Virus record (IMG/VR): IMGVR_UViG_3300033150_002389
Source of the DNA: a virus
Direction: 5' to 3' (one strand)
Length of the DNA: 56,517 nt
Position 1 is the first letter of the stretch; each line of letters starts with the position of its first letter. Of the stretch, positions 24,312 to 44,396 are shown in pieces. The notes beneath the pieces were generated by a model. It was not told the origin of the DNA. It worked only from the letters and a program-made list of their open reading frames with translations, and searched no databases. The position numbers and the translations under genes were made by a program.

Positions 24312-25219
24312 CCGCCAGTCAACTTATCCAAGACGCGCTTGAAGAGCTCGGGGTGGTTGGTGCAGGGCAAACCGTATCGGCGGAAGACTCGGCAACTGCG
24401 TTGCGCGCCCTGAATCTCCTTGTCAAGCAGTGGATGGGTCCCGGGAGCCCTGTCACGCCGGGTCTCAAAATGTGGAAACGGCGGCAACTCACTTTGGACC
24501 TAACATCTACCGACAAGTATGCCCTGCAAATTCGACGCCTAGCCTTCACCTCGGGGGGCACGACGGCCATTGCGGTAGGGGACACCATTGCTGGTGCAAC
24601 CTCCAGCGCAACTGCAAAAGTCATGGCGGTAGAGGTGACATCTGGCAGCTGGGCTGGTGGCGATGCGGCCGGCGAGCTCATAATTGAGGGCCAATCCGGG
24701 ACCTTTCAATCAGAAAATCTGAACGTTGGAGCAAGCTCCAACCTTGCGACAATATCCGGGAACAGCGAACAGTACGGGCCACCAACGGAAATCATGGACC
24801 CCCTAAGGCGTACCTCTGATGGCGAAGATACTCCCATGGATATCATATCCCAAGCTGAATACATGGGAATTGGCGATAAGGACGCAAGCGGCACCCCGAC
24901 TAAGATTTACTACGAAAAAAGGATTGACGAGCTGAGGATCTATCTCAACGCCACTCCGAGCGTCACTACAGACAGCATTGTGTTCGTGGCTCTACTTCCG
25001 ATAGAGGATTTTGATAGCACTAAGGACAATCCTGACTTTACACGTGAATGGCACAGAACGCTGAAGTGGAACCTGGCCAAGGAGCTACTCGCAAAGTTCC
25101 CGAGTAGCAAGGACAGGGCCGCAGTAATCATTGCGCACGCCAACGAATCCTTGGGTATAGCCAATATGTTTGAACCGGAGAACTCGGACGTCTACTTTGA
25201 GCCGGACAAAGACTTATGA
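24278..25219 (+). CDS. virion structural protein (head-tail adaptor or tail tube candidate)
   Basis: position in late operon. Confidence 0.4.
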   Translation: MASSGSADYTVTASQLIQDALEELGVVGAGQTVSAEDSATALRALNLLVKQWMGPGSPVTPGLKMWKRRQLTLDLTSTDKYALQIRRLAFTSGGTTAIAVGDTIAGATSSATAKVMAVEVTSGSWAGGDAAGELIIEGQSGTFQSENLNVGASSNLATISGNSEQYGPPTEIMDPLRRTSDGEDTPMDIISQAEYMGIGDKDASGTPTKIYYEKRIDELRIYLNATPSVTTDSIVFVALLPIEDFDSTKDNPDFTREWHRTLKWNLAKELLAKFPSSKDRAAVIIAHANESLGIANMFEPENSDVYFEPDKDL

Positions 25220-26610
25220 ACTTGCCACTTTTACACGAACTGCCAGGCGAAGGCGTTTATCCCATCAATCTGTTCTGGATGCCAGAACTTGACGACGGAC
25301 GTCCCGGACTGATGGGGACCCCGGGCCTCACGCTCTTTAGAGTGATCGACAGCGGGGGCGGAGAGATCCGCGGCATGTGGGATATGGACGGGTACCTCTA
25401 TATCGTCTGCAAGTCCTCCGTATACCGGTACATAGACGGCACGCTGACAACATGCACCGGGTCGCTGCTAACCTCAAGTGGCCGGGTCTCAATGGTGGAC
25501 AACGGGACACAGCTGATGATCATCGACGGCACCTATGGCTACTATGTTACCGGAACCACAGTTACCCAAATTACAGATGCCGACTTCCCCACACCTTCAT
25601 CCCTTGCCTTCCAGGACGGTTACGGCGTCGTCACGCAGGATGGGACCGGACGAATCTATATATCAGCCCTCAATGACTTTTCCACGTGGGACGCCCTGGA
25701 TTATTCCACCGCAGACGGAGAGCCTGATGATGCATTGGCGGTTATTTCCGATCACCGGGAGCTCTGGGTGTTTGGCGAAGAAAGCATCGAGCCCTACTAC
25801 AATTCCGGTAACGCGGATTTTCCCTTCGAGCGAATTTCCGGCGGCTATCAAACAAAAGGGATTGCTGCCGCAAAATCGTTAACTGCAGGCGACAACACCC
25901 TCTTTTGGCTATCCAATCACCGGCAGGTTTTGAGGTCAACTGGCCTGGGGTCTGCACCCGAGATCGTGTCTACCCGGCAGCTTGACAAGAAATTTGCAGC
26001 TTACAATACCGTCTCCGACGCCTTCGGCTTCTGCCTCGATACGGTCGGCGGCACTTGGTATGTGCTTGCCTTTCCAACCGAAAACGTCACCTGGGCCTAC
26101 AATACTGCCACCAAGCGCTGGCATCAATGGGCAAGCTATCCTATCACCGGAGATACCAATATTCGTCATCGAGCGAACTGTTACTGCTACCATGCGGGAA
26201 ACCACCTCATTGGAGACTATGATAACGGCAGAATCTATGAGGTGGATCCGTCCAGCTACACTGACTATGGAAATGCCATAAAATCCCAGGTGATCTTGCC
26301 CACCGTCACGAGAGATGGTAGGCAGATTTACCACAACCGGCTTGAGGTAGAATTCAAGGCAGGCGTCGGGCTCGCTACCGGGCAAGGCAGTGATCCCAAA
26401 GCTGTGCTGGATTGGTCCGACAATGGCATGAGGTCCTGGTCCAACGAGCTCTGGCGCAGTATCGGAAAGATCGGCGAGTATACCCGGCGCGTCACCTGGC
26501 ACCGCTTGGGTATGGCGAGGCGCAGGAACTACCGCCTCACGATAACAGATCCTGTTGAGAGGGTCATCTATAACCCCGCCGTCTTGGACCTCAATGTTGG
26601 TGGATACTGA
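25216..26610 (+). CDS. virion structural protein (tail hub candidate, similar size to P22 gp10)
   Basis: 464 aa, Gly/Thr/Tyr-rich beta-type composition; position. Confidence 0.4.
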   Translation: MNLPLLHELPGEGVYPINLFWMPELDDGRPGLMGTPGLTLFRVIDSGGGEIRGMWDMDGYLYIVCKSSVYRYIDGTLTTCTGSLLTSSGRVSMVDNGTQLMIIDGTYGYYVTGTTVTQITDADFPTPSSLAFQDGYGVVTQDGTGRIYISALNDFSTWDALDYSTADGEPDDALAVISDHRELWVFGEESIEPYYNSGNADFPFERISGGYQTKGIAAAKSLTAGDNTLFWLSNHRQVLRSTGLGSAPEIVSTRQLDKKFAAYNTVSDAFGFCLDTVGGTWYVLAFPTENVTWAYNTATKRWHQWASYPITGDTNIRHRANCYCYHAGNHLIGDYDNGRIYEVDPSSYTDYGNAIKSQVILPTVTRDGRQIYHNRLEVEFKAGVGLATGQGSDPKAVLDWSDNGMRSWSNELWRSIGKIGEYTRRVTWHRLGMARRRNYRLTITDPVERVIYNPAVLDLNVGGY

Positions 26611-27503: not shown

Positions 27504-27814
27504 TGGACGCCCAGTCAATTGCAAATGTGTGCGGAGGGCTACTATTGGGAGGTTATGCAGCTTTGCGAGTAATAAATTTCTTTCGGTCGAGGTCGAGTAG
27601 TTCAGGCGCCAATTCAAGGCAGAACACCGCTAACCGCGCTCACTGCCCTGAGGACAGCTGCAAGGCGACGGTCATCAGCACAGCAGAGAGGGTCAGGACC
27701 CACGATGACCAAATCTCGAAGCTCTTTGAAACAACAAAGAAGATCTCAGAAGATGTAGCCTTTATGAGGGGCAAATTGAGCGGCGCGAAAATAGTTCGCT
27801 TCCAAGAGGAGTGA
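27503..27814 (+). CDS. small membrane-anchored protein (holin or spanin candidate)
   Basis: TGATG stop/start overlap; N-terminal hydrophobic helix IANVCGGLLLGGYAALRVINFF. Confidence 0.3.
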   Translation: MDAQSIANVCGGLLLGGYAALRVINFFRSRSSSSGANSRQNTANRAHCPEDSCKATVISTAERVRTHDDQISKLFETTKKISEDVAFMRGKLSGAKIVRFQEE

Positions 27815-28437
27815 CAGCAGTGAATGCTGAAAGCCACGACATCCTCAATGGCACCATGACAATTTATCGCACTTTGAAGGCCTACCGGAGGCAGAGGGCG
27901 ATTGAGGATCAGGATTGGGCTCTCATTCTGGCGTCCCTCAAGCGGATAGAGGGGGCATGTAAAACGTGCTACCGGAATGACTCTGCGAGCAAGGTAATCG
28001 CTTTGCGTCGGGTAGCCCTGCGGGTCGCTTGGAGCTTCCTTGGACGACCATACATTTGGGGCGGTGACGACCCATTGCAGGGATTTGACTGTTCTGGTTT
28101 CGTCATTGAATGTTTGAAATCCGCGGGTGTCCTTCCGCGCGTGGGTGATTGGACAGCGCAGGGGCTCTGGGATCGATTTGAGGATTGCAAAGTCCAGGAC
28201 GTCGAACCAGGCTGCCTCGTATTTTGGAAAAATGAAAAGGGCAGAGTAACCCATGTGGAAATCTGCATCGGCAACGGCCTCACCATCGGATCTAGCGGTG
28301 GCGGAAGTCACACGCTCACGGGTGCGGACGCCATCAAACAGAACGCGTACATCAAGGTACGCCCGATCCGCGATAGCCATAGCCTGAAGGGTTACCTGGA
28401 CCCGTTTCTGAAAGCAAAGGAAGGGGGTTTCAAATGA
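27811..28437 (+). CDS. NlpC/P60-family peptidoglycan endopeptidase
   Basis: GFDCSGFVIECL catalytic Cys motif and downstream VTHVEI His. Confidence 0.6.
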   Translation: MTAVNAESHDILNGTMTIYRTLKAYRRQRAIEDQDWALILASLKRIEGACKTCYRNDSASKVIALRRVALRVAWSFLGRPYIWGGDDPLQGFDCSGFVIECLKSAGVLPRVGDWTAQGLWDRFEDCKVQDVEPGCLVFWKNEKGRVTHVEICIGNGLTIGSSGGGSHTLTGADAIKQNAYIKVRPIRDSHSLKGYLDPFLKAKEGGFK

Positions 28438-29060: not shown

Positions 29061-29702
29061 ATGTTAGGTGCAATTTTAGGAGTAGCTGCGGCCACATTGG
29101 GCGGAGCCTTAATCAGCTCCGGTGGGGCATCTAAGGCTGCCAGTACGGCGGCTGCCGCCACAGACCGCGCCGCAGAAGTACAACGCGAAATGTTTTACAC
29201 CAGCAGGGAGGACCTGGCTCCCTGGCGCGAAGCCGGGAAACGAGCCCTGAGTGCTCTCGAAGGAAGAATTGAGGCTGGCCCGGGTGAATTTGTGCCGGAG
29301 GAGGAACCCGGATTCAAGTTCGGCTACAGGGAGTTCGTCGAAAAGCCGCTTATGAGGCGAGCCTCGGCGCGAGGCGGTGTTGATAGTGGCAGGACCCTCA
29401 AGGAGCTCACTCGTTACGCAGAAGACTACGCCTCCACTCGGTACGACAATTTCCTCAACCGCTGGTACAAAAGCCTTACCCCATATCAGAGCCTTGCTGG
29501 TGTCGGTCAGACATCGGCTGCTCAAATGGGCGAGAACGCTCTAGTCGCTGGCGGGAACATTGGAAACGCCCTGATCACAGGCGGCCAGGCAAGGGCTTCC
29601 GGCTACGCTAATCAAGCCAATATCTGGGGAGGAACCGCAGCTGGCATAGGGCAAAACCTTCTTGATTACGCGATTCTAAAGAAAGCGGGAATACTAAATT
29701 GA
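29061..29702 (+). CDS. internal virion protein (putative)
   Basis: Gly/Ala-rich; position. Confidence 0.4.
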   Translation: MLGAILGVAAATLGGALISSGGASKAASTAAAATDRAAEVQREMFYTSREDLAPWREAGKRALSALEGRIEAGPGEFVPEEEPGFKFGYREFVEKPLMRRASARGGVDSGRTLKELTRYAEDYASTRYDNFLNRWYKSLTPYQSLAGVGQTSAAQMGENALVAGGNIGNALITGGQARASGYANQANIWGGTAAGIGQNLLDYAILKKAGILN

Positions 29703-29709
29703 CGGGGGA

Positions 29710-31242
29710 ATGAAAATGGCTAATTTTTTAGTGAATCCGCCGCCTGTCCCCTCAATAGGCAAGTCAATGCAAAACGCTTTAAGCCTGAAATACCTCCAGA
29801 CGAGGCAGGCATTGGCGGAGCGAGATTTGAGGGACGTAGGCAGAGCAGAGGAATACGAGAAGGCGAAACGAAGTCTGGATGCCTTTAACGCTTACATTGA
29901 CACCTATGAGAAAACCGGGAACAAGGACCTTGCTGACAAGGCCTTCAAGGCTTTGGAGCCAGATTCAGACCCTCCAGCTGAAACGTGGCGTATAGATAAA
30001 AACGACCGCCACTACACCTTTGCTGATGGCACCGAGGTAATTGGGGACCCCCAAGACGTCAAGACCGTGATGGAGGAACTCAGGCAGTATTTGCCCCAAA
30101 TTCACCAGAACCCGGAATACCAAGCCAGATTCTTTGATTTCGCAGCTGCACATAATGTCGGTATCAAGTTCGGTAAAGCTGGGGAAATTGAGCCCTTATA
30201 CGACACGGCTGAGCGGAGGGTTTATAACCTTCCCAAGGCGGAGGCTCGGGCGAAGAAAGCAGAAGATCCGGTGCGGTACCAGACCTATGATGAACGAATT
30301 GGAAAGAGGAAGAAGTGGGAGCCCTCCACCAAGGAAGAGTTGCTTGACCTTGAGGAAGCCAAGCAGAGAATCAGGGCAAAATACGAGCAGCCTGGATTGA
30401 CCCCGGCGCAAAAGAGCAGGCTGAACTTGCTCGAAGAGAAGGCAAAAGCAGAGATTGAAATAATACAGGCGTACCGCATGGGAGAAAAGGATCTTCAGGG
30501 CAACCCTGTTGTGCCTCCAGAACAGGCAGCGGCCGCAACTCGACGCCTCGAAGAAACCATGAAACAGATAGACCAAATCCGCGGCCAAAGACCAACCAAC
30601 GCTTTAGCTCAACCTACAGGAATAGCCCCTCGTGGAGCGCCTATAACGCCATCAGCATTACCGGAGGCTCCAAGAGCAACGGCACCTGCGGCGCCGACCC
30701 AACCGACTGCTGGCTCATTGTTTTCCAAGCTTGTCGCTATCCATGCCGAGCTACTCAAACAGGGCGTTGACCCTATGAGTCTTCCCAAGGTTCGGGCTGC
30801 AACAGAAGCTTACTTCAAGCAGAACCCGGAAGCGCAAGAGCGTTTTAGGGATGCCCTTAATGCCCAGCAGATTGAGGGTCCCCCTCCGGTTTCGCCAGAA
30901 GTCAACGCCATACGCCAGGAACTGCGCAAGGAGGCAACCCAGAACCTGACAATTGCTGAGGCGGCAAAAGAGATTGGGAAACGGCTTGTATCGGGCATGA
31001 GTCCCGAGCGCGCTGGCGCAGTAGCGGCAGAGTACCTCCCACTTTTACCGGAAGATGAAAAGGTGGTGGACTTCGACTCATTCAAGAAGTTCTTCAAGAA
31101 GGTGCGGAAGGCGGATAAGTGGACTGAGCAATACCTCCGGGAGGCCTTCAAGACCTATTGGAAAGGCTTGAATTGGGCTGGCAATGCCCTCTTGGGCATA
31201 AGGATTCCTGGAACAGCCGGACTCAGAAGCGAGGAGAAGTAA
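29710..31242 (+). CDS. internal virion / ejection protein (putative)
   Basis: 510 aa; position before the giant protein. Confidence 0.4.
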   Translation: MKMANFLVNPPPVPSIGKSMQNALSLKYLQTRQALAERDLRDVGRAEEYEKAKRSLDAFNAYIDTYEKTGNKDLADKAFKALEPDSDPPAETWRIDKNDRHYTFADGTEVIGDPQDVKTVMEELRQYLPQIHQNPEYQARFFDFAAAHNVGIKFGKAGEIEPLYDTAERRVYNLPKAEARAKKAEDPVRYQTYDERIGKRKKWEPSTKEELLDLEEAKQRIRAKYEQPGLTPAQKSRLNLLEEKAKAEIEIIQAYRMGEKDLQGNPVVPPEQAAAATRRLEETMKQIDQIRGQRPTNALAQPTGIAPRGAPITPSALPEAPRATAPAAPTQPTAGSLFSKLVAIHAELLKQGVDPMSLPKVRAATEAYFKQNPEAQERFRDALNAQQIEGPPPVSPEVNAIRQELRKEATQNLTIAEAAKEIGKRLVSGMSPERAGAVAAEYLPLLPEDEKVVDFDSFKKFFKKVRKADKWTEQYLREAFKTYWKGLNWAGNALLGIRIPGTAGLRSEEK

Positions 31243-31244
31243 AA

Positions 31245-34200
31245 TTGCCCAACCTCAATGCCCTCATTCAAAGCGCCGAACGGGAAGCACAAGCCGTTAC
31301 GGGCGTAAAAGCCAACGCCCTTACTACTGCAGCTAGCCCCTCAACCGAAGAAAAAGACTACCAAAATTACCTCCTTCAATACGCAGTAACAAACCCTGAA
31401 AATCCTGCCCACCATTACGACTATCGCTCTGCCTACAGGGCTGGCGTGAAACCGATTATGTGGGACGATCTACCCAAAGAGGTTAAAGAGGAGGATATCC
31501 AACAAGCAATTACAGGGGAACGGACTGGCCGCCCCATGTCGAGAGAAGAAGCAATCCAGTTTTACTCTGGTCATTACATGTGGCCCGACCAATTCAAGCT
31601 TCCCGGACACCCTGTACCGCCGAAAAAAGAGGCGATCAATGCCCTCATTGCGCAGGCAGCAGAAGAGGCCCAAGCCACATTGCAAGGCACGGAAACCGAG
31701 TATCATCCGTGGGGTGCCGCCAAGATGACAGTCTATGACGCGCTGTCTGGGCTTTCTGCGCTGCCGCGCACCATAGGCATGGGAGAGACCGCCCGCAATG
31801 TGGCTGAGTTCTACGATAAGCGGGCTGAAGCGGATCCGGATATCCGGGAATTCAAGAAGGCGTCCGAGCAAGGGCGGGAAAGTATATGGACTGAGGCACT
31901 GGGTTCCGCTGGCCCGACAGCCATGGCTCTGGGCATGAGATTCATCCCCTATGTGGGGTTTCCACTCGCAGCCTCTTATTTCTGGCACCTGAATAAAGAC
32001 GAGGTGAAGGACCTTGCGCTAGCAAAGGGTGCCGACGAAAAAACAGCGGAGAGGATTTCCTGGATAGGCGGCACCGTCAACTCTGCACTTGATGTCCTTG
32101 GCCTGGAGGCGATTGCTGGGAAAATGCCATTCCTTCGCGGGCCAGTGAAGAGCGTGAAGCACCGCCTGGTAGGTGCTGCAGTCCGCCTAATGGCCAGTAC
32201 AGGTGGCGAAGGTCTCACAGAGGGAATGCAGGAAGTCGTCGGCGAGCTATCGTCCGAATATGCGGCGAGCAAAGATGTCAGAGAATTTCTCGATCGAGTC
32301 AGCCAAAAGCAGTGGTGGGACAAAGCACTTGCCAAAGCTGAAAAGTCACTGAAAGTCGGCTCCATGATGGGGGCCGTCTTCGGTGGTGCTGCATCGGTGG
32401 CGGAAACCAGGCTTCAAAAGCGCCTTAAACCTGAGAAGGCAACCAAGCCCCTAGAGGCCCCGAAAGACCTGAGCGAGCTCATAGAAGAGGCTGAAAAAGA
32501 GTATACCGAAATCTTGCAACAGGAGGTGCCCCGTGATCGTAAAGAGGAAGAAAGGATATTACGTCGTGAGCGAGCACAAAGGCAAGGACGGAAAGAGGAG
32601 GAGGCTCGGCGGCCCGTACCCCACGAGGGAAGAGGCCGAGGAGAGGCTGGAGCAGGTGGAGTATTTCAAGGCCCGCAGCCGACACGCCCAACGGAAGAAG
32701 CGGTCCGCGTCGAGGAGGAATATCAGAAAGGAGACAGAGTAGAAACGCCGGAGGGCGCCGGCGAGGTCCTCAGGGTCGCGCCAGCGGAAACATCTGGGGA
32801 GGAAAAGCTGACAGTGAAGCTGGACGAGGGAGAAACTGTCGAGGTCTCTCCCGCCGAAGAGAAGGTGGAAAAGCCGTCCCCCCCACCGGAGGAAGTCGAC
32901 GAGGCGGCACAGGAAGCCGAGCCTGCCCCTACCGAGGCGCAGAAGGAAGCTGGCAATTACAAGAAGGGTCATATCAATATACAGGGGATGGATATCTCCA
33001 TTGAGAATCCAAAAGGTTCGATAAGGGAGGGCGTAGACAAGCAAGGGAAAAAGTGGAAATCAAAGGTCGCGGCCCACTATGGCTACATCAGGCGCACAGA
33101 GGGCAAAGACGGCGATCAGGTAGATGTCTTTATCGGCCCGCGCCCTGAAACCAACAGGGTATTCGTGATAGACCAGGTTGACCCAGAGACCGGCCTGTTT
33201 GACGAACACAAAGCGATGGTCGGTTTCCCTACGAAGAAGATGGCCAAGACGGCCTACCTCCGCAGCTACACCAAGGATTGGAAGGGCCTGGGGGCGATCA
33301 CGGAAATGACCGTCAATCAATTCAAAGATTGGATTAGGACGGGAGACTCGTCGGCGCCCCTGGGTCTTAAAGAAAAGCGCAAGGTAGCAAAGGACGCTAC
33401 ACGGGGGGCTGCCGGCAACCTGCTTATAAAGACCTCAGATCAGACGATCTACGAATCCAGGCAACCCGTTCACGCCCTGATGCTCGGCGAATTTGGCGTA
33501 AAGCCAGAAGATGTTATTGACACTGGCTTGATTGATAAAACCGGGAAAGAGATGTGGGCCGGCAGCAAAGAGATCAAGCCGCTAACTGAAGAAGTCGCCG
33601 CAGCTGTCCGAGAGCAGAGGAAGCGGGAGCAGCAGAAAAAGAGGGCGCAGCGCGCAGCTAAAGCCAAGACCTTTCGGCAATGGGTCGCCCTCACAGGGGG
33701 CATTAATCCCCAGGACAAGACCTGGCGTGGCGAAATCCGAGACATGCGCTATACAATGAATGCCGCCGGCAAAAAAGTTCCAGCGCCGGGCTGGCCAGTT
33801 GGCATTTGGAATCGCAAGGCAAGAGGCGTGGATGAGCGGACCCATGACGCTATTGAGGCCGGGTGGCTTCCCACAGCGGCTACAGAAGACGACTTCATGC
33901 AGGCCCTAGAGCAAAACATTACGACCAAAATAACAAAGGCTGGTGCCCAGGAAGATGTTGACACCGTCGTAAAAGAAGAGGAAGATAAGTTAGAGCAAGA
34001 GTACGAGAGGGAGCTGGCCCGCCTTAAGGTTAAAATCAAGGAGGAATGGGATGCCGGAGGACAAGAATACACACCCGCCGATCTCGAAGGAGCTGCGCGA
34101 GAGCTTGAAGCCTACCTTGCGGCGAATGAACGTGACGAGATTAAAGCTGCGAGTATTGAAGAACTTGAGGAAATCTGGCGTCTTTTCGACGAAGCAGTAA

Positions 34201-37200
34201 AGCCAGAACCCCCAGTTGTTGAACAAGCCCTAGACGAAGCATGGAAGGAGATTTCCCAAGAAGACCAGGACTGGCTTGATAAAGAGCTCGGCCTGAAACC
34301 CGCCGAAGAGAAGCAGGCAGAAAGACCCCCCGCCAGAAAGAGCCCTCCTGAGAGCAAATCTATAGACGATGCCATTGGATGGGTTCACGCTGTGCAGCAA
34401 AGCGTGTGGGATCCCACGGAAAAGAAATGGCATTACACCCCGCGTGAAAAGATTATCAGGGCTATTGAAAAAGCCAAGAAAGCCGGGGCTCGGGTCGAAC
34501 GCCTGCCCGGTACGGGAAGGGAAAGCGCTGAGACCTGGAAGCTCTATGACGACGAAAAGGGCCTTGTCTACGTCCTTCAGAGGGAACCAAATGGGCGGAC
34601 CACTTGGACAAGTCGCAGGATTCCCCCATCCGCGTCCAAAAAATCCTATGAAGACATCGTGAAGCAACTTGAAGCCAAAGGTTTTTACGGGACGATTGAT
34701 CGGTTGAAGCGCGGCCTAATAACACTGGATGAAGCGCACAAGGAACTTTTGGGAGCAAGGCTGAAAATTAAGGTAGTACCGCTAAACCCCGAAGAGTTCG
34801 CAGCGGAACTTAAAGCCAAGGGTGTTGGTAGGCAGGAATCCTGGAGCCACTGGATTAGAAAGACTGGCTTAAAGCCGGGCATGGACGCGAAAGACTGGTA
34901 TAAGATATACGATTCCGTTACACTGAGTAAGCTGGAGGCTGCGCAGAAACCCAAAGAAGTCGAGAAAGCACAGCCAAGGGAGAAGGCTGCAAGACCAGCC
35001 CTTGAACTCAAACCGACCGAGCCAACGCCTCAAGAGAGGGTCGAATTACTGAGGGCAAAAGGCGAGATTGAAAAGCCCATCAAGGCATATCGGGAAGGGG
35101 ATCGAGAAATCATTAAACTCCCCGATGGCCGCAAGCTCATAAGAGGCAGGGACAGTGAAGGCCGGATCTACTACGAAGTCGAAGGCTCCTGGGAGGGCCT
35201 CAAAGAACTGGGCTTTGACCCGGAAACCTTTACGATTGACCAGGCAAAGGCCGCCCGAGTCTTTCAGCAATACCTCAAGCCTAAAGCCGCTATCCCCAAA
35301 GAAAAGGTTAAACCCCCTACCACCGGCAAACAGAAGAGTCTGCTTGCCCCGGAGAAGGGGGAAACGCTTGATATTTTTGAGAGAGGTGTTGACAAGATAG
35401 GTGAAAGCGGGGCACAATACATTTATGCACCTACCACGCCCCAAGAGCAATATTCACTATTTGATTTCAAGCCTGCCGAACGGCAAGAGGATCGTAAAGT
35501 ACCTCCCCGTAGACGTGTGCGAGTTTCCACAACCGGACGAATTAGAGCGGCGGGAGAACTCGTATCAGGCCCAGAGGATGTTGCAGCCCTCCTCGCCTTC
35601 CTCAGAAAATCGCCACAAGAATTCCTTTACACGGTAACGACTGATAAAGAAGGTGGAATCCTTGAGATCCACAAGTACGCCAAGGGTCACAGCGCCGGTG
35701 CCATAGCCAACCCCGTTGAACTTGCTGGGCGGATACTGAACATACCTGGGGCATCTGAAGCTTATCTCGTCCACAACCATCCCACAGGTGACCCGAAACC
35801 AGGCAAAGAAGATTACCAGATAACTTCAAGCGTCAGGAGCCTTCTTGAGGCTGGCGATGTGGAACTGACATCACTTATTCTTGGTGGAACCGAATACGTT
35901 GAGATGCGCCCAGGGGAAGTGGCAGAGACAACAAGGAAGATCCGCCCCAGAATTCGCAAAATTAGCCTTCCGGTGAAAGAGCGCAGCCTGCTTCTCGGCG
36001 GCGCCCCACAGACTAGAATCGTCGATTCGGAGGACGCGCTCAAAGCCCTGAAGGAGCAATTCAATAATGACGATGGCGTTATGCTCCTTGACCGCAAAAA
36101 CAGGGTGCTTGCCTTTGTGCCCTTTATCAAAGGCAGAAGCATGAAGCAGACCACCGCCGACGTTCTAAGGATCGCCGAAGCCACCAACGCCAGCGGAATG
36201 ATCGTCAACAACAGCGTGCTAACCCAGGCGCGCTCGGACTACGTCAATGCCCTGTGGAACGGAATTGAAGGTTTGACGATAGTAGACGTATTTTGGGAAG
36301 CCCAATCGTGGGCTTCGCGACAAGGGCGTGGCAAAGGTCCCACAAAATATGCCACGCTTCTTTCCGAAACCAAACTAGCTCTCCGCGGCGAACAACCATA
36401 CCGCCTATCCCCGCGCCAATTCCGAAATATCAAAAGGACCGCCAAGCTGGTTCACTCCTGGCTCGAAAAAGCCGGAGCACCTCCCGAAGTGCTTGAGCGC
36501 ATTGATGTAGAGCTAAAGCCCATAATCTCCTTGAGCGGAAAAAATATTGCCAAGTCAGTGAAGGAGTGGCAGGAACAGGGCATGGGGATACGCCAGATTT
36601 TTGGTGCTACCACCTTTGACGATTATCGCGCGATTATGGAACTTGCCCTGTCGCTTCAGAATTTGAAAGGGCTGGAACGCACCACCTATCACGAATACAT
36701 GCACGTGGCCCAGAGATGGCTACTGACAAAATCCGATGCGGAGCACTTGATAAAATATTTTGGTAGCGAGGAGGCCGCTGCGGATGCCTTTGCGGAATTC
36801 ATGGTGAATCGCTCATCGCTCAAAGATAAGCCCAACATGATCCGCGCAATCATGATGAGGTTGCGCCGCTACCTGCAAATCATTAGGAACGGGCTCAAGG
36901 GACAGGGTTTTACCCGTCCCGAGGATATCTGGGGCAAAATGGTCACCGGGCAGTATGTCCCGCATTTTGGCGCACCAGAGATCGAAGAGACTACGACGGC
37001 TTTCTCTTTGGCGGAGCCCCCGGGGAAAGAAGCAGAAGTCGAGCCCCGCATAGTTCCGACCAAGCATTTCTCAGGCACATTTGATGACTGGAACAGGCAC
37101 GTGATCGAGACCTGGGAAAAATACGGCGGACGCAAAGGCACTTTTCAGGCTGAAGAGAAGAAATACGAACAGGGTTTTTCAAGGGGGTCCTTAGGCCCCC

Positions 37201-40200
37201 TCCGCACGCTTGGGGAAATATGGAAGAACCGCAAAGCTGGGTGGAAAGCTCAAAAGCCAGATACCACGGTCCTCGACCGCCTCATATCAGTGCCGGCACA
37301 TCACTTTGAGAAGGTCCCCGCTTTAAGGAGAATGTACGAGGCGGCTCTTGCCAGGCCCGACACCTACTATGAGTACCTGAATCTCCTAACCAAGAACAGT
37401 AAAGGTGAATACCTTACCAAAAAGCTGGAGGACTTCAGAAAGCGCCACAAACAGGACTACGCTAAGGTCAAGGCGTACCTAGTCAACCGCGACCGCAACC
37501 AAATAGGGTACAGGGTTGAGAAAGACGAGGGTAGCGACCTATGGAAGCTCAGGAAACCAAACGGCCAGTTAGTGGGCAGTTATGACTCTGAGGCCAAGGC
37601 ATGGGGCGCTGCCGTTCAAATGGAGGCTCAGGACCTTAGAAAGCGCGGCTTTCCCGACCAAGCCGTTGACGCGGTGGTGTCCTTCCGGCTAATCATGCAT
37701 AAAGGCTTTAATATCCTGTCAGCTTCGATGCGCGAAATTATCAGCCAATATGAGGAGTCGGGTACGGCACTACCCTCAGTAGCGGTCAGGCTGGACAACA
37801 AAAGGGTAGAAGTTGACCTCAAAACCGCCCTAGCCATGATGGGGGATATGCGAGGTTACTACTTCCCGCGCATAAGAAGGCCCGGGCGATTCGTGCTGTA
37901 CGCCGAAAAGAAGGGCGAAAACCCGATCATGGAATTCTTTGACACCAAAACGCTTCTTGCCAAGCGGCACACAGAACTCCAAAGGAAAGGGTACACCGTC
38001 ACGAAGGATCTCTCCCCCAAGATGCCGGAAGACGTCTTCGAAATGGCAGGCCAGGTCATTGCCATGCAGGCGCAGATCAATCAGGCCCTTGAGCGTATAC
38101 ATGCGCGCGGACTATCTTTAGAGGACTTTAACCTCCAGTGGACCGACAGGATGGTAAGGCCAGGGCTCAGGGACTTCGTTATCACCGGACCGACATCCAA
38201 GAGGATGACACGGGTCTTTAAGGAGCTGGGCGGAAAGTTCTATTCAGCGTATGAAGGGGAGCCGAGGGCCTGGCATTTCTACAACCCTGGCCCGAATTTC
38301 GACAAAAAGGTCGCAAAGGCGCTGGCCAACTCAGTTGGCATAGTTGACCAAGAGGTGCAGGTACTGTTCGCAAAAGCCATGGCCGAGCAAGTGGCCAACA
38401 TCATAAAGGGTCGTGGGCACCGTGCCCACATGATCCAGCGCCAAATGGCCAAGGGCAAGGATGTCTGGATCGGTTATGAGGAGGACCCGGCTATTGCCGC
38501 GGCGAAATATGCGTCGGGGTTGGCCGCAGGGGAGGCTAAAAGGATCGCAGCGCTTGACATGGTTCGAGCGTTCACTGGCACAGACATTACCTGGCAGCAG
38601 TACAAGACCCTTGAGGGCGAGGACGCCACGTATGAGGAGTGGCTCAACATGGTGGAGGACCGGCGGGTCAACCCCACGAAACAGCCCAATGCCTTCAGGG
38701 AAGGCAAAGCGTACCTGCAGGACGTGCTCAGGAACGAAGAGTGGATTGACCGGTTCGTGGGCACAGTCAAGGGCGTGGCGGTGCTGAAATATCTAGGCGG
38801 CCGCATCAGCGCCCCCTTGGTGAACCTCACTGCCATGGTAACGTCAGTCCCGGCAGCTATGGAAGGTATCGCTGGGATCCCGATACACAAGACCTTCCGT
38901 CTCATCGGCAACGCCTCCAGGCTTTACGGCCACTATAAATTCGGTGACAAGGATAAATTACCGCAGCACGTCAAGGACCTTTTTGAGGAGATCGAACAGA
39001 AAGGCTGGCACAAGTCGCAATACAATCGCGAAGCGCTGTCAGTTCTTGAGAGCAAGCTAGGCCGAGGGTGGAACAGGGCAATCGAATGGGCCATGCTCGG
39101 CTTCGGGGCTACCGAGCAACTCAACAGGGTTTCGACAATTGCAGGCACTTACCTTGGATTGAAGCTCCAAACACCCCAAGGGAGCTTTAACCACGACGAA
39201 GCCCTGCGCATTGCAAAGGAGGTCTCAGACAAGGCTCACGGAGTTTACGGAAAGGCGAATATCCCATACCTCGCTAGGGGCGCCAATCCTGCCGCGCAAA
39301 TTGCCAGAATGTTTTACGTATTCCGGACCTTTTCGCACAACTACCTTCTGACCATGAAGCGAGTGTGGGGTCCCGGCTGGAAGCCCGAGCACGCAAAGGC
39401 TTTTTCGTGGATGCTCCTGAGTCCAGCCGTGCTGGCCGGGACTGGGGCGACTGTCTCTACGCCTATCATAACGGCAATCGCTCAAGCCCTGGGCATAGGC
39501 GGAGAAGACCCAGAGGAAAAATTTTACGACTGGTTGAACCGGAATTTTGGCGAATACGCTGAGCGATTCGGCAGGTTCGGCGCTTTCGGTCTCGCAGGCG
39601 TATCCCTTAAGGGTTCGCTTCAGATCGGAATTACCGACATCCCAACGACGATACCCGAAATCCTTGGCGCTCCTGGAAGCGTCATATCTGAAACATTCTA
39701 CCGCGGTCCACAAAGCATTTTGCGTGGCGACGTCCTAAAGGGCATCGAAAATGAACTACCGCTCTTCATGGCCGGAATAGTAAAGGCATATAGAGAGACC
39801 ACAGAGGGGGTGACCACCAGAAACAATGCACCCGTCTTCTGGGGCAATGAACCGCTCCTCCCGGAGACGATTGATGCACTTTACAGAGCTCTCTCCTTTA
39901 ATCCCGCAAGGATCGCGGGGATTAGGGAGAAGCAATGGAAGGAGAGGCGCATTGAACAGAAATATCGAGAAATGAGGACGGATATCTACGCCAAGATCAA
40001 GCGCTTTTACCTGCGTCCCCTATCTGAACGGTCCAAGGCGGATTGGTTGGATATCATCGCTGAAATTCAAGATTACAACGAAGCGGTAAGGGCGCACGGG
40101 CTTGAGCGCCTCGCACCCCTCATCACCCGGAAATCCATACGAAACAATATCAGGCGGGCATTCCGGCCCCCAAAAAGGGAACGCCTAAGGCAGGCGATGC

Positions 40201-40205
40201 CATAA
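31245..40205 (+). CDS. giant polyvalent ejection protein (about 2986 aa) with pyrophosphatase-like, JAB/MPN and zincin HExxH domains
   Basis: TTG start with GAGGAG 8 nt upstream; DGDQVDVFIG (PPase signature-like), LVHNHPTGDPKPGKEDYQIT (JAB), HEYMH (zincin); C-terminal hydrophobic segments. Confidence 0.6.
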   Translation: MPNLNALIQSAEREAQAVTGVKANALTTAASPSTEEKDYQNYLLQYAVTNPENPAHHYDYRSAYRAGVKPIMWDDLPKEVKEEDIQQAITGERTGRPMSREEAIQFYSGHYMWPDQFKLPGHPVPPKKEAINALIAQAAEEAQATLQGTETEYHPWGAAKMTVYDALSGLSALPRTIGMGETARNVAEFYDKRAEADPDIREFKKASEQGRESIWTEALGSAGPTAMALGMRFIPYVGFPLAASYFWHLNKDEVKDLALAKGADEKTAERISWIGGTVNSALDVLGLEAIAGKMPFLRGPVKSVKHRLVGAAVRLMASTGGEGLTEGMQEVVGELSSEYAASKDVREFLDRVSQKQWWDKALAKAEKSLKVGSMMGAVFGGAASVAETRLQKRLKPEKATKPLEAPKDLSELIEEAEKEYTEILQQEVPRDRKEEERILRRERAQRQGRKEEEARRPVPHEGRGRGEAGAGGVFQGPQPTRPTEEAVRVEEEYQKGDRVETPEGAGEVLRVAPAETSGEEKLTVKLDEGETVEVSPAEEKVEKPSPPPEEVDEAAQEAEPAPTEAQKEAGNYKKGHINIQGMDISIENPKGSIREGVDKQGKKWKSKVAAHYGYIRRTEGKDGDQVDVFIGPRPETNRVFVIDQVDPETGLFDEHKAMVGFPTKKMAKTAYLRSYTKDWKGLGAITEMTVNQFKDWIRTGDSSAPLGLKEKRKVAKDATRGAAGNLLIKTSDQTIYESRQPVHALMLGEFGVKPEDVIDTGLIDKTGKEMWAGSKEIKPLTEEVAAAVREQRKREQQKKRAQRAAKAKTFRQWVALTGGINPQDKTWRGEIRDMRYTMNAAGKKVPAPGWPVGIWNRKARGVDERTHDAIEAGWLPTAATEDDFMQALEQNITTKITKAGAQEDVDTVVKEEEDKLEQEYERELARLKVKIKEEWDAGGQEYTPADLEGAARELEAYLAANERDEIKAASIEELEEIWRLFDEAVKPEPPVVEQALDEAWKEISQEDQDWLDKELGLKPAEEKQAERPPARKSPPESKSIDDAIGWVHAVQQSVWDPTEKKWHYTPREKIIRAIEKAKKAGARVERLPGTGRESAETWKLYDDEKGLVYVLQREPNGRTTWTSRRIPPSASKKSYEDIVKQLEAKGFYGTIDRLKRGLITLDEAHKELLGARLKIKVVPLNPEEFAAELKAKGVGRQESWSHWIRKTGLKPGMDAKDWYKIYDSVTLSKLEAAQKPKEVEKAQPREKAARPALELKPTEPTPQERVELLRAKGEIEKPIKAYREGDREIIKLPDGRKLIRGRDSEGRIYYEVEGSWEGLKELGFDPETFTIDQAKAARVFQQYLKPKAAIPKEKVKPPTTGKQKSLLAPEKGETLDIFERGVDKIGESGAQYIYAPTTPQEQYSLFDFKPAERQEDRKVPPRRRVRVSTTGRIRAAGELVSGPEDVAALLAFLRKSPQEFLYTVTTDKEGGILEIHKYAKGHSAGAIANPVELAGRILNIPGASEAYLVHNHPTGDPKPGKEDYQITSSVRSLLEAGDVELTSLILGGTEYVEMRPGEVAETTRKIRPRIRKISLPVKERSLLLGGAPQTRIVDSEDALKALKEQFNNDDGVMLLDRKNRVLAFVPFIKGRSMKQTTADVLRIAEATNASGMIVNNSVLTQARSDYVNALWNGIEGLTIVDVFWEAQSWASRQGRGKGPTKYATLLSETKLALRGEQPYRLSPRQFRNIKRTAKLVHSWLEKAGAPPEVLERIDVELKPIISLSGKNIAKSVKEWQEQGMGIRQIFGATTFDDYRAIMELALSLQNLKGLERTTYHEYMHVAQRWLLTKSDAEHLIKYFGSEEAAADAFAEFMVNRSSLKDKPNMIRAIMMRLRRYLQIIRNGLKGQGFTRPEDIWGKMVTGQYVPHFGAPEIEETTTAFSLAEPPGKEAEVEPRIVPTKHFSGTFDDWNRHVIETWEKYGGRKGTFQAEEKKYEQGFSRGSLGPLRTLGEIWKNRKAGWKAQKPDTTVLDRLISVPAHHFEKVPALRRMYEAALARPDTYYEYLNLLTKNSKGEYLTKKLEDFRKRHKQDYAKVKAYLVNRDRNQIGYRVEKDEGSDLWKLRKPNGQLVGSYDSEAKAWGAAVQMEAQDLRKRGFPDQAVDAVVSFRLIMHKGFNILSASMREIISQYEESGTALPSVAVRLDNKRVEVDLKTALAMMGDMRGYYFPRIRRPGRFVLYAEKKGENPIMEFFDTKTLLAKRHTELQRKGYTVTKDLSPKMPEDVFEMAGQVIAMQAQINQALERIHARGLSLEDFNLQWTDRMVRPGLRDFVITGPTSKRMTRVFKELGGKFYSAYEGEPRAWHFYNPGPNFDKKVAKALANSVGIVDQEVQVLFAKAMAEQVANIIKGRGHRAHMIQRQMAKGKDVWIGYEEDPAIAAAKYASGLAAGEAKRIAALDMVRAFTGTDITWQQYKTLEGEDATYEEWLNMVEDRRVNPTKQPNAFREGKAYLQDVLRNEEWIDRFVGTVKGVAVLKYLGGRISAPLVNLTAMVTSVPAAMEGIAGIPIHKTFRLIGNASRLYGHYKFGDKDKLPQHVKDLFEEIEQKGWHKSQYNREALSVLESKLGRGWNRAIEWAMLGFGATEQLNRVSTIAGTYLGLKLQTPQGSFNHDEALRIAKEVSDKAHGVYGKANIPYLARGANPAAQIARMFYVFRTFSHNYLLTMKRVWGPGWKPEHAKAFSWMLLSPAVLAGTGATVSTPIITAIAQALGIGGEDPEEKFYDWLNRNFGEYAERFGRFGAFGLAGVSLKGSLQIGITDIPTTIPEILGAPGSVISETFYRGPQSILRGDVLKGIENELPLFMAGIVKAYRETTEGVTTRNNAPVFWGNEPLLPETIDALYRALSFNPARIAGIREKQWKERRIEQKYREMRTDIYAKIKRFYLRPLSERSKADWLDIIAEIQDYNEAVRAHGLERLAPLITRKSIRNNIRRAFRPPKRERLRQAMP
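32533..32742 (+). CDS. embedded +1-frame ORF, 69-aa basic protein
   Basis: GTG with AGGAGG 6 nt upstream; GC3-rich codons in this frame while the host frame is low complexity with A-ending codons. Confidence 0.4.
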   Translation: MIVKRKKGYYVVSEHKGKDGKRRRLGGPYPTREEAEERLEQVEYFKARSRHAQRKKRSASRRNIRKETE

Positions 40206-40307: not shown

Positions 40308-42875
40308 ATGAAATCCAGGCACTTAAAAATCGTTTTTCAGGCGCTTCTGATTATCTTTATGCTTCTCGCCCACCTTTCTTGGGCGGGAACCCTCATGTCC
40401 AATCCCAAGTTTCAAGCGTTCGACTCTTCCGGTGTACCCCTTGCCGGAGGAAAGCTCTACAGCTATCTCCCGGGTACCACGACAAGCAAGGCTACATACT
40501 CTGACCGCAACCTTTCGACGCCCAACACCAATCCTGTCATTTTGGATAGTCGCGGTGAGGCGACGATCTATGGGTCCGGGCTTTACAAGCTTGTCCTTAA
40601 AGATTCGTCCGATGTCACTATCTGGACCATGGATAACGTGGAATTCGTGGGGGGAGGGGGATCTTACAATCTCTATCCTAACCCCTCGGAAAGTGACCAT
40701 GGCGCTGCTGGAAACGGATCGTCACTTTACGACCTCCTTACGGCACTAGGCACCAGCAAAAAAGCGACCGTGGCGTTCACCCATAACGGCTCCTCGAACA
40801 CCACCACCTACACGGTCAACACCACCTACGACATTTCTTCCTACACCAACGTAACGTTTCAATTCGAAAACGGTGCCCTCCTCTCTCCTGCTGCTGGAGT
40901 GACGGTAACGATTTATTCGCCGGAGAATATTAATGCGCCGGCAACACAACAGATTTTTGATGGTGATGGATCAATCGCCTATTCTGTTCCAGGGCACATA
41001 TATACCGGCTGGTACGGGTCTGACACTGATGCTTATCAAGATGCTTTTGGCAACGCAAATTGCCATATCACCTGCACTCATGATGTCAGCCTTACAGATA
41101 AAATTACAATACAAGATGGTCAGTGGATTGACTTTCTCCCAGGTGTGGTACTAACTCAGACCGGCACAGATAAAAATACTTTTTATGCTTCTTCAAAAAA
41201 TAATATCACCATTGATGGCCGAGGCGGAAAACTGGTTGGCAGATTGGTTACAGAGCAGCTTACAGACAGAGGATTAATCCATTTTGATGGTTGCACAGAT
41301 GTCAGAGTAACTGATCTTGAGGTAATGACCGGCTTTGATTTGGTTTGGATTGCTAATTCGGATCGTGTATGGGTAGAGAGAAACGAGCTGCATAACTACC
41401 AGCGTGTTGCACTGAATGGCACGAGCAATACAAAATTTCATTTTGATAAAAATACTATTTACGACAATCAGGAAACAGGGAAGCAGAATTGTTATGCTAT
41501 CCAAGCAACAGGTGATAATGATGGCGGCAGCCCGCTTGAATATTCCTCAATCAATTTTAACAAGATAACAGGTCCTCGGGCCTGGGATGGCATTATGTCT
41601 CATGACTGTGACGATCTTGAGATTATAGGCAATGTCATAAAAGATGTTCGCCAGGGGATTGATGTTGGGCTGGCAGGCAGCACAAATATAGTTAAGAATG
41701 TAAGGATCATTGGAAATTATCTTGAAGGCACCTCAACGGATACTTGGTCTGGCACAGGTGCTAATAATTCCGGCATTCAAATCTCTGGTCAACCTGTGGC
41801 AGGCGATTGGACAGATTTTGATGCTATTTCAGATGTAGTAGTGTCAGACAATATCATTACTGGCTTCAATAAGCACACAACATCCGCTGGAAATGCAGGG
41901 ATTTTTGCTCAATATATCAGAAATTTCTCGCTTACAGGAAATGTGATTTACGGCTTGGAAGATAATTGGACTCATGGTGCTGGGATTGTATTAGTTGGTG
42001 CGACGGTTTCTGGGACAATTTCAGGAAACACTATCACAGCTAAATCAGGCGAAACAGGTCCTATGAATCAGGGAATTCGTCTGTATAACCTTGATCTATG
42101 TTACGGTGTTACAGTTGTTGGCAATACAATTGCCGATGAATCAGGCAATATGGATTATGCTATTCGGGTAACAGGTTCAAATTTTATAGATGCAGTAGTT
42201 GAAAAGAATAACTTTTACGGTTTTACCACACCTTACAATTTTGGAGCCACTGGAAACAAAGGCCCTCTGCCATTTTGTGATGTAGGCTATTGGAATGGTA
42301 ATGCTTGGGCTAATCCCGTTACCTATTTAGGCGCGAAGATGCGTTATTATACTGCTACTGATAAAGTTGACACTGGGGGGTTGGTTCTTAGAAAGCGTAT
42401 AGAAGATACAATTGCCTCAGTGGACGACACTGATACGATTACTATAAATGGATCAACATCTAATATGGCAGTTGGAGACGTAATTCACATTTTCAAAGAT
42501 ACAGATGAGTCTAGTCCTTATGTTCATAGTACTACAATCGCAACGATTGTCGATGCTGATACTATAGACATTACAGGTGCACTTGGAGCAACAACGGAGG
42601 TCTCAGCGGGGAATAAAATCTACGTTGTAGAATGGGAAAAGCCGTATGCATCAGGGACGGGGACAATTGCCAGTGGAACAACAAGCAAGGTTATTACTCA
42701 TGGATTAGGATTTACCCCCGACCCACAAGATATAACCATTACTCTAATAGAAAATCCTACAAATACCCCAGGGGCAATCTGGGTAGATAGTATTGGCGAT
42801 ACAACTTTTACGGTAAACTGTGAGAATGACCCTGGTGCATCAAATCTGGATTTTGCTTGGAAATATAGGAAATAA
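40308..42875 (+). CDS. tailspike / tail fiber with right-handed beta-helix (pectate-lyase-like) domain
   Basis: AAGGAG SD; conserved tail-fiber N-terminal motif ...GVPLAGGKLYSYLPGTTTSKATYSD...NTNPVILDSRGEA; beta-helix repeat motifs; AT-rich C-terminal two-thirds. Confidence 0.65.
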   Translation: MKSRHLKIVFQALLIIFMLLAHLSWAGTLMSNPKFQAFDSSGVPLAGGKLYSYLPGTTTSKATYSDRNLSTPNTNPVILDSRGEATIYGSGLYKLVLKDSSDVTIWTMDNVEFVGGGGSYNLYPNPSESDHGAAGNGSSLYDLLTALGTSKKATVAFTHNGSSNTTTYTVNTTYDISSYTNVTFQFENGALLSPAAGVTVTIYSPENINAPATQQIFDGDGSIAYSVPGHIYTGWYGSDTDAYQDAFGNANCHITCTHDVSLTDKITIQDGQWIDFLPGVVLTQTGTDKNTFYASSKNNITIDGRGGKLVGRLVTEQLTDRGLIHFDGCTDVRVTDLEVMTGFDLVWIANSDRVWVERNELHNYQRVALNGTSNTKFHFDKNTIYDNQETGKQNCYAIQATGDNDGGSPLEYSSINFNKITGPRAWDGIMSHDCDDLEIIGNVIKDVRQGIDVGLAGSTNIVKNVRIIGNYLEGTSTDTWSGTGANNSGIQISGQPVAGDWTDFDAISDVVVSDNIITGFNKHTTSAGNAGIFAQYIRNFSLTGNVIYGLEDNWTHGAGIVLVGATVSGTISGNTITAKSGETGPMNQGIRLYNLDLCYGVTVVGNTIADESGNMDYAIRVTGSNFIDAVVEKNNFYGFTTPYNFGATGNKGPLPFCDVGYWNGNAWANPVTYLGAKMRYYTATDKVDTGGLVLRKRIEDTIASVDDTDTITINGSTSNMAVGDVIHIFKDTDESSPYVHSTTIATIVDADTIDITGALGATTEVSAGNKIYVVEWEKPYASGTGTIASGTTSKVITHGLGFTPDPQDITITLIENPTNTPGAIWVDSIGDTTFTVNCENDPGASNLDFAWKYRK

Positions 42876-43175: not shown

Positions 43176-44396
43176 TTAGTTATCGCTTTCGGAGTGCCTA
43201 AATTTCTTTGCCACTTTTTTGCCACCCCTAGCATCGGAATAGATGGCCCTGAGGTCGTCTCCTTCCTCCCAGTAGTAGCGGTCAAATGCCTTGGTAGTGC
43301 TCCTCATCGAGCCATAGCGGATCTCCTCCGGGGTGCGGTATTTTCTGAGAGCCCTGGTGGTTGAGTGGGTAGTGCCCCCGTAGAGGTCCACTCCCTGGAT
43401 TCCGAGCTTGGCACAGGCCCGCTTCCACCACTTGTAAAAATGTTTCTCGCCGAATTGCCTCCCATTCTTATGGCGGAAGAAATAGGCGTCAGGATCTATG
43501 CAAGGGGGTAGGGCCCCCAAGATCTCCACGTCTTCGTCAATGAGATACACGATTTTGGACCTATTCTCCTTGGGGTGCCGTATCAGGATCTCTCTTGCCT
43601 TCAGGTTGATGTCCCCTTCCCGGATATTGCGCCATTCCTCGGGCCGCACGTTAAAGTAGGTGGTCATCCATTTGATGCCCAGCCAGGTCTTGTAGGGGGC
43701 CCACCCCTTCAGCGTATCCAAGATACCGAATTGGTCTGCCTTCGTAACAGTCTTTCGCCGGCGAAGCTCAAACTGGACCTTCGGGAACTTGGGCATTACC
43801 GAGATCTCATCATTATCGTAAAGCCACTTGAAGAACTGCTTAAGTGTCTGAATATAATTGAATTTGCTCTTATTGCTGACGTTATACTGGGTGAGAAAAA
43901 ACTGGAAGTCTTTCAGGCGCAGGCGTTTTACGCTGACAGGGCCAAAAACTCGAATCGCCTTCCAAATATGGTCTTCAAGGGCCCGATAGGTGTTTGGGCT
44001 GATGCCGTCCGGCCTGATCTCCGCCTCTCGGAGGCGGAGCCACTCATTGGCTAGATTTTCAAACCCAAGGGGATTATCAGCCCGATATTCCCTGGGGTCG
44101 AACGTTCCCTCATCCTCCTTGAACCTGAGGCCAGTGAGGCATTTTTGAGCGGCCTCGTAGCTCCTGAAACGCCGTGTGACCCCCCTGAAGTAGATCCGAA
44201 ACCGCCTGCTGGCCCTTTGCTCTGGATGGTTCGGGCAGAAGAGTCCCCTCCGACCATCATCTTTAAACCTGCCCCCGCATAAGGGGCACTTTTCATCAGA
44301 ATAGATTCCCCCTTTCATGCAATCGCCCCCAACCCCAGATTTGGCTGATACGGGGCCGATCTTACGTTGGTAAGGGGTAGATGTCAAGGAGGCCAT
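43176..44396 (-). CDS. int: tyrosine recombinase / phage integrase
   Basis: C-terminal HSTTRAL (HxxR) and AFDRYY catalytic Tyr region; adjacent to tRNA-like att sequence. Confidence 0.7.
   Translation of the reverse strand: MASLTSTPYQRKIGPVSAKSGVGGDCMKGGIYSDEKCPLCGGRFKDDGRRGLFCPNHPEQRASRRFRIYFRGVTRRFRSYEAAQKCLTGLRFKEDEGTFDPREYRADNPLGFENLANEWLRLREAEIRPDGISPNTYRALEDHIWKAIRVFGPVSVKRLRLKDFQFFLTQYNVSNKSKFNYIQTLKQFFKWLYDNDEISVMPKFPKVQFELRRRKTVTKADQFGILDTLKGWAPYKTWLGIKWMTTYFNVRPEEWRNIREGDINLKAREILIRHPKENRSKIVYLIDEDVEILGALPPCIDPDAYFFRHKNGRQFGEKHFYKWWKRACAKLGIQGVDLYGGTTHSTTRALRKYRTPEEIRYGSMRSTTKAFDRYYWEEGDDLRAIYSDARGGKKVAKKFRHSESDN

Follow-up and report, generated by a model that had tools for sequence, protein, structure and literature searches.

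The virus record IMGVR_UViG_3300033150_002389 of IMG/VR, a stretch of 56,517 nucleotides (hereafter, the window), carries at 31245-40205 (+ strand) a gene for a giant protein of 2,986 amino acids (aa), which is read here, with a probability of roughly 75%, as a polyvalent protein of the PLxRFG family that is packaged in the virion. This reading is based on the position of the gene in a late structural operon, enzymatic domains that retain their catalytic residues, a C-terminal module, the recurrent position of the zincin ahead of that module, the presence of the related protein H66 gp60 in virions, the occurrence of the InPase domain in other virions as portal fusions, and a published concept. 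Polyvalent proteins were defined as giant phage and plasmid proteins joining unrelated enzymatic domains, predicted to enter the virion and to be injected along with the DNA, and probably processed by their zincin metallopeptidases (MPTases) (Iyer, Burroughs, Anand, de Souza, Aravind 2017, J Bacteriol 199:e00245-17, PMC5512222). In the same manner, a single giant polypeptide here carries InPase, RadC and zincin MPTase domains, that is, at least two disparate activities in one open reading frame (ORF), and is encoded by a phage among its virion genes. A preliminary description, made from the sequence alone, had already placed the protein in the known class of multi-effector proteins injected with the DNA; the class is that of PMC5512222, and homologues with polyvalent-protein Pfam domains and the NCBI name PLxRFG bear this assignment out.

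One continuous gene

No stop interrupts the + strand reading frame between 31158 and 40205 (3,015 codons), a length with a chance probability of about 1e-62 in a random frame. The TAA of the preceding gene lies at 31240-31242, and a ribosome-binding site, GAGGAG, was read from the sequence at 31231-31236 (+), 8 nt 5' of a TTG at 31245. This TTG is the first start codon past GAGGAG and the only plausible start of the gene; amino acid numbering is counted from it throughout, and the stop codon lies inside the end coordinate. The guanine and cytosine (GC) content of the three codon positions follows the order GC1 > GC3 > GC2 in all nine complete 900-nt segments tested (31245-39344, about 90% of the ORF), so the coding pattern extends across the tested span, regions lacking homologues included. 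The two ends of the window carry an exact direct repeat of 70 bp (1-70 = 56448-56517). As these terminal bases are identical, the window represents a circularly closed assembly of a complete podophage genome, about 56,447 bp long, 15.9% of which is taken up by the giant gene; no tRNA genes were found in this genome.

Homologues are lacking for nearly half of the protein, and metagenome assemblies can be chimeric, which could suggest an artefact, namely a chimeric assembly, fused genes, or several products made from internal starts. Such an artefact is very improbable, given the absence of stops in 3,015 codons, the uniform codon-position GC, and the closure of the contig via its 70-bp overlap. 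The identical protein (P0001) is, moreover, recorded in the JGI metagenome collection, on two contigs, and the order InPase, RadC, C-terminal module is common to at least five independent relatives, ORFs of 2 to 5.6 thousand amino acids (kaa) being the rule in this family. Homologues also align across the domain borders, which speaks against several separate genes, the outcome that the preliminary description had named as fatal to its proposal. A single, real and uninterrupted gene is confirmed, and the ORF of about 2990 aa proposed there agrees in its coordinates. The "unusual size" also claimed there has to be given up, as the span of the relatives makes this size ordinary for the class.

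Domains of the giant protein

Searches of Pfam, PHROGs and NCBIfam with the whole protein and with ten tiles returned InPase, RadC and PLxRFG alone, the other tiles being blank. The four motifs from which a pyrophosphatase-like segment, a JAB/RadC metalloenzyme and a zincin had been proposed in the preliminary description, i.e., HYGYI (aa 611-615), DGDQVDVFIG (aa 622-631), HNHPTGDPKPGKEDYQIT (aa 1510-1527) and HEYMH (aa 1816-1820), are all in place. They belong to real domains, with InPase and RadC scoring above the Pfam gathering score and the zincin being recognized through invariant HExxH...E columns and its fold. The domains are described below from the N-terminal side, all on the + strand.

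The InPase domain (aa 564-697; 32934-33335) is a family I inorganic pyrophosphatase of the polyvalent-protein type, matching PF18823, the InPase model of PMC5512222, with an E-value of 9.8e-60 (200.7 bits vs. a cut-off of 26.8). The classical model PF00719 stays below its cut-off (12.3 vs. 23.5), as expected for the polyvalent InPase clade. Nine residues (E587, R594, Y612, D622, D627, D653, E654, K656 and Y671) are kept here and in 99-102 of the 102 homologous domains, and these conserved positions are the metal- and substrate-binding residues of family I pyrophosphatases. About 294 Pseudomonas phage records match this domain, and the Pa193 portal protein gp19 (PDB 9B41, chain 9b41_L) matches it at E 3.6e-30. 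Pbunavirus portals with a C-terminal InPase (Pa193 gp19, BcepF1.124) hold the same domain inside the capsid, although it is fused to a myophage portal there, whereas it is the cargo of a PLxRFG protein here. No cryo-EM density is available for the InPase part of the Pa193 portal (C-terminal residues 529-765), and a sequence search of the PDB found no experimental structure of the polyvalent InPase clade. The clade itself, including its fusion to portal proteins, has been described (PMC5512222).

The RadC-type JAB/JAMM unit (aa 1431-1668; 35535-36248) consists of a Pfam core (aa 1442-1554; PF04002, E 2.2e-15, 57.1 bits vs. 22.1) and an extension, roughly 110 aa long and conserved together with it; this 238-column unit recurs in 8-21 relatives. 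The JAMM metal ligands and catalytic glutamate (E1459, H1510, H1512, D1523) are kept, and the domain matches the RadC homologue of PDB 2qlc (E 4e-4). As the cut-off of the cellular RadC equivalog NF000642 of NCBIfam is not reached (50.8 bits vs. 180), the domain is shared with cellular RadC, but is no orthologue of it. The end of the unit, at 36012-36248 (aa ~1590-1668, "DGVMLLDRKNRVLAFVPF...NASGMIVNN"), is always conserved along with RadC. By eye, the region after RadC resembles a second, degenerate half of a JAB domain devoid of HxH; a BLASTP self-comparison gave no match.

The gluzincin-type metallopeptidase domain (aa 1725-1911; 36417-36977) presents the HExxH motif (H1816-E-Y-M-H1820) on a helix, a downstream glutamate ligand (E1843), and a fold made of a beta-sheet and helices. 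Its query sequence matches no Pfam model, including the MPTase models of polyvalent proteins, and the zincins of homologues give only sub-threshold Pfam matches (DUF6782, Peptidase_M41, DUF3920). Judged by these comparisons, this is a zincin of a family devoid of a curated model, beyond published descriptions. The region containing it (aa 1790-2003) has a predicted local distance difference test score below 50 in the first AlphaFold2 (AF2) model, as full-length homologues align poorly there, and the assignment was made from a separate domain-only alignment. In at least ten relatives, 900-1,400 aa separate the zincin from the C-terminus, and in P0148 and P0143 it is contiguous with the C-terminal module. 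Because its position recurs and adjoins the module, the zincin and the module behave as one constant block. The location of the zincin between cargo and structural part is also that reported for polyvalent proteins (PMC5512222).

The conserved C-terminal chassis, the PLxRFG or "tail-700" module of NCBIfam NF032893, comprises about 1,000 aa (aa 2000-2986; 37242-40202). The NF032893 match covers aa 2504-2970 and model positions 190-667 of 681, with 99.8 bits vs. a cut-off of 100 (E 1.4e-28). The name-giving motif is present as the variant YYFPRIRRPGRF (aa 2205-2216; 37857-37892), in register with GVYFPLARFGKY of NCBI-named members. It reads YFPRIRRPG vs. the canonical YFPLARFGKY (YFPLxRFG) and stands 780 aa from the C-terminus, where the family criterion places the motif at about 650-750 aa. 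The PR[IML]RxxG variant is common to P0002, P0004, P0005 and P0008-10, which form a divergent subclade. The module was found in 42 of the 102 first-round homologues (all of 1.8-5.2 kaa), always ending 1-127 residues from the C-terminus; four of these bear the NCBI name PLxRFG (P0014, P0017, P0024 and P0080) and were joined by a local profile. An exhaustive search over 1.84 billion representative proteins with aa 2000-2986 gave 1,173, 849 and 449 clusters (at 50% identity) for E <= 1e-3, 1e-10 and 1e-30, respectively, with the matches sitting at the C-terminus of proteins of up to 5.6 kaa. Short matches (about 900-1,300 aa) were not accepted as stand-alone chassis proteins; in the one examined, P0124, the start lies just 17 nt from a contig end (3.9-kb contig), which makes a fragment probable.

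AF2 modelled the module region as mostly helical (predicted template modelling score 0.62), and a comparison with solved folds gave no match, including any solved ejection protein. The C-terminal hydrophobic segments of the preliminary description do exist, as Gly/Ala-rich stretches (aa 2508-2548, 2717-2754 and 2778-2799), but they are only moderately hydrophobic (Kyte-Doolittle peak 1.51) and similar ones occur in the N-terminal domain. A long, helical module with Gly/Ala-rich amphipathic stretches would also suit a mainly structural tail or channel protein, tape-measure- or tail-fibre-like, whose enzyme-like domains would be degenerate or structural; the NCBIfam short name "tail-700" and the annotation of some relatives as "tail protein" or "structural protein" point the same way. 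This is nevertheless improbable. Conservation of the catalytic residues extends over 14-102 homologues for the InPase, JAB and zincin domains, a pattern that argues for active enzymes, and the genome has a separate needle-like gene and a tailspike gene. To our knowledge, a tape measure is absent from short-tailed phages whose neck is of the P22 type.

The remainder of the giant protein is variable. An N-terminal conserved domain (aa 150-421; 31692-32507), Gly/Ala-rich and moderately hydrophobic, is common to P0002 (48%), P0007 (61%) and P0022 and recurs near the N-terminus of three to five relatives; no match was found for it in Pfam or in isolated phages. The central charged region (aa 705-1430; 33357-35534) has no domain assigned, with no match in Pfam or in isolated phages and 0-2 matches among 252 relatives. 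More generally, next to no relatives were detected among these 252 for aa 1-150, 440-560 and 705-1430, nor any family match. The "coiled or low-complexity linkers" of the preliminary description correspond to such charged stretches without detectable homologues. The best relative covers at most 1,593 of the 2,986 residues, and the partner domains of relatives vary: SNF2, Eco57I methylase, ART-PolyVal, ddrB-ParB, MuF_C, PBECR, LPDs, SLT (lytic transglycosylase) and GGDEF. RadC and InPase, on the other hand, are found together in one phage protein here and in at least nine relatives. In this respect the protein differs from the polyvalent proteins described so far, for which RadC was generalised as confined to conjugative elements (PMC5512222), as it does in its zincin, which matches none of the Pfam models, those of that paper included.

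Gene neighbourhood and known systems

The genes for the large terminase, the portal, the major capsid protein, Ad3 and Hc3 (identified with PHROG) lie 5' of the giant gene, on the same strand. The P22-type neck (24278-26610, +) comprises the adaptor Ad3 (24278-25219) and the head-closure protein or tail hub Hc3, which is gp10-like (25216-26610), matching phrog_637, phrog_12985 and phrog_578 (E 2.5e-99). The Hc3 product is similar to P22 gp10 over its full length (BLASTP E 3e-5, aa 16-447). It is followed by a needle-like gene, an NlpC/P60 peptidase gene and then the gene of a 213-aa protein (29061-29702, +), a candidate gp7/gp14-like first ejection protein (PF25688 P22_gp7, E 9.3e-5, 22.8 bits, under the cut-off of 28; BLASTP to P22 gp7, E 0.003). 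Next comes a 510-aa protein (29710-31242, +), placed in the P22 gp20 position from its location and size; it has no family match and no similarity to P22 gp20. Directly 3' of the giant gene, a beta-helix tailspike-like protein is encoded (40308-42875, +; PF13229 Beta_helix, E 6e-11), past which an integrase gene lies on the opposite strand. This order matches that of P22 (4, 10, 26, 14, 7, 20, 16, ..., 9, int), with the giant gene in the gene 16 slot.

The P22-like layout put forward in the preliminary description is therefore well founded, on the PHROG Ad3 and Hc3 assignments, the P22 gp10 similarity, the weak P22_gp7 match two genes upstream and the gene order. Its "ejection-protein position" is right as a position; the ejection role is deduced from this position, with no detectable similarity to P22 gp16. 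Like P22 gp16 and T7 gp16, which are the third ejection proteins of podophages and belong to the inner membrane, the giant protein is the product of the last gene of a gp7-gp20-gp16-like cassette, which follows a P22-type neck and precedes the tailspike. T7 gp16 likewise bears an enzymatic domain. In contrast, P22 gp16 has 609 aa, the giant protein being five times larger. Podophage ejection proteins are typically recognisable by size and synteny alone (PMC8954989), and the gp10 hub of P22 templates the assembly of gp7, gp20 and gp16 into a trans-envelope channel (bioRxiv 10.64898/2026.09.03.749273). In two unrelated metagenomic podophages, L002 (JGI Ga0378408_0003491) and L005 (ENA ERZ25039549 contig_70467), the giant gene again comes after two mid-sized genes (508 and 475 aa in one, 213 and 441 aa in the other). 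These pairs have no sequence similarity to the 213/510-aa pair, and one contig has an SU10-type adaptor, not a P22-type neck. The 213- and 441-aa neighbours upstream on the P0006 contig gave no sequence similarity to the genes here.

Isolated phages with the C-terminal module include Pseudomonas F116, H66 and LKA5, Klebsiella Lastavirus and Sinorhizobium PBC5, with 23-25% identity over about 400 aa. H66 gp60 (3,787 aa) contains the module at E 5e-155 to the local profile, with the canonical PLSRFG, and its annotation states that it was "verified by mass spectrometry as part of the virion". Like H66 gp60, its F116 counterpart and the 495-kDa protein of Klebsiella Lastavirus, the giant protein has the module at its extreme C-terminus, and its gene comes a few genes behind Hc3, where the structural block ends. 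Unlike them, it has YFPRIRRPG instead of YFPLxRFG, and the cargo differs, H66 gp60 being annotated with a methyltransferase-like domain. Many of the phage relatives in GenBank are annotated as "DarB-like antirestriction", "DNA methylase" or "Snf2 helicase", and a role in DNA metabolism has been guessed (PMC9505181); according to such names, the protein would be a non-packaged intracellular enzyme, acting in restriction avoidance or DNA metabolism within the producing cell. There is little to recommend this, since the gene lies within the late structural block, between the neck and ejection genes and the tailspike gene, and the giant protein has no methylase or helicase domain. Moreover, H66 gp60 is found in virions and P1 DarB is itself a head protein (PMC5512222).

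The giant protein may further be compared with the virion RNA polymerase (vRNAP) of coliphage N4, gp50 (3,500 aa), in which an HExxH zincin precedes a C-terminal region needed for encapsidation (PMC5512222). Gp50 is a giant podophage protein that is packaged in the virion and injected, and its arrangement of cargo, zincin and packaging region would follow the same plan as here. The giant protein nevertheless has no RNA polymerase domain, and the two zincins align weakly (E 0.003, hhalign probability 11%).

Other genes of the window were noted as well. Two glycosyltransferases (GT4 and GT1 matches) and an S-adenosylmethionine-dependent methyltransferase are encoded between the major capsid gene and Ad3 (18956-19996, 20626-21546 and 22824-24311, +), an unusual location; they may modify virion proteins or be morons. 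The NlpC/P60 cell-wall peptidase (27811-28437, +; E 6.5e-13), between the needle-like gene and the ejection cassette, may be a virion-associated peptidoglycan hydrolase used for entry. The opposite-strand arm (43176-44396, 44929-46587, 47563-48495, 48878-51181 and 51446-52681, -) encodes a weakly matching tyrosine integrase, an SF2 helicase, a DHH/DHHA1 (RecJ-like) phosphoesterase, and an SbcC/SbcD-like pair (SMC_N/AAA_23 and Metallophos). The phage may be temperate, and the arm supplies it with DNA-end-processing genes of its own. Finally, a 210-aa protein with an NYN ribonuclease domain is encoded at 966-1598 (-; E 2e-6).

Proposed mechanism and significance

Synthesis of the giant protein would take place late, along with that of the structural proteins; the capsid would then hold it until infection, when it would be driven out via the portal and tail. 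The C-terminal block would serve as a constant chassis, ensuring incorporation into the virion and passage through, or anchoring in, the trans-envelope channel, with the giant protein leaving the capsid either in the role of the third ejection protein or alongside it. A channel function for the module is a tentative proposal, to which slightly less than an even chance is given. The N-terminal two thirds would constitute exchangeable cargo. In this cargo, InPase may hydrolyse pyrophosphate or a phosphoanhydride derived from a nucleotide at the site of entry, on or within the inner membrane, and the RadC-type JAB domain would be a putative nuclease or peptidase acting on a nucleic-acid or protein substrate. 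The gluzincin, ahead of the chassis, would most likely cleave its own polyprotein, either while still inside the capsid or once delivered, thereby freeing the cargo; such self-processing, again, is possible but falls a little short of being the favoured outcome.

Several points weigh against the virion-packaged polyvalent protein and its proposed mode of action. Packaging, injection, self-processing and all substrates are what we infer for this protein, the virion annotation being supplied by H66 gp60. The ejection-channel role is drawn from gene position, as no sequence, profile or fold similarity to known ejection proteins was detected. Homology of the C-terminal module to P22 gp16 was rejected (BLASTP E > 0.1, hhalign probability 0.3%, no fold match), as was homology to the C-terminal region of N4 vRNAP (hhalign probability 0.2%). 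The NF032893 score is 0.2 bits short of its cut-off and the name-giving motif is altered. In the RadC domain, the canonical JAMM serine, present in 20 of 23 homologues, is replaced by Gly1520 (motif at 35772-35813 of the window), so the activity of this domain could be altered. The N4 vRNAP, which also has a zincin, was reported to be packaged unprocessed (PMC5512222), and self-cleavage is, therefore, not a given. Lastly, aa 1-560 and 705-1430 (1,285 aa, or 43% of the total) are without assignment.

The class, InPase, RadC and the PLxRFG module have already been described or named, and the giant protein is a new, divergent member. What goes beyond the literature, as far as sequence comparison can tell, is the co-occurrence of RadC and InPase in phage proteins, contrary to the 2017 survey, and a common C-terminal module without a recognisable solved fold. 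A broader proposal is that the PLxRFG module is a structurally new and widespread protein-delivery chassis, replacing the gp16-type third ejection protein in P22-, F116- and SU10-like podophages, that the 1,285 unassigned residues contain undescribed effector domains, and that InPase-RadC is a counter-defence unit; taken as a whole, this is rather unlikely. If it were true, the InPase-RadC pair could destroy a nucleotide-derived signal together with a nucleic-acid or protein target at entry.

The presence of RadC with InPase in phage proteins corrects the generalisation of the 2017 survey. The nearly half of the protein that lacks relatives may hide new effector domains. The clean chassis boundary, with a constant zincin and module behind swappable cargo, offers a target for structure work and for the engineering of enzyme-delivering phages.

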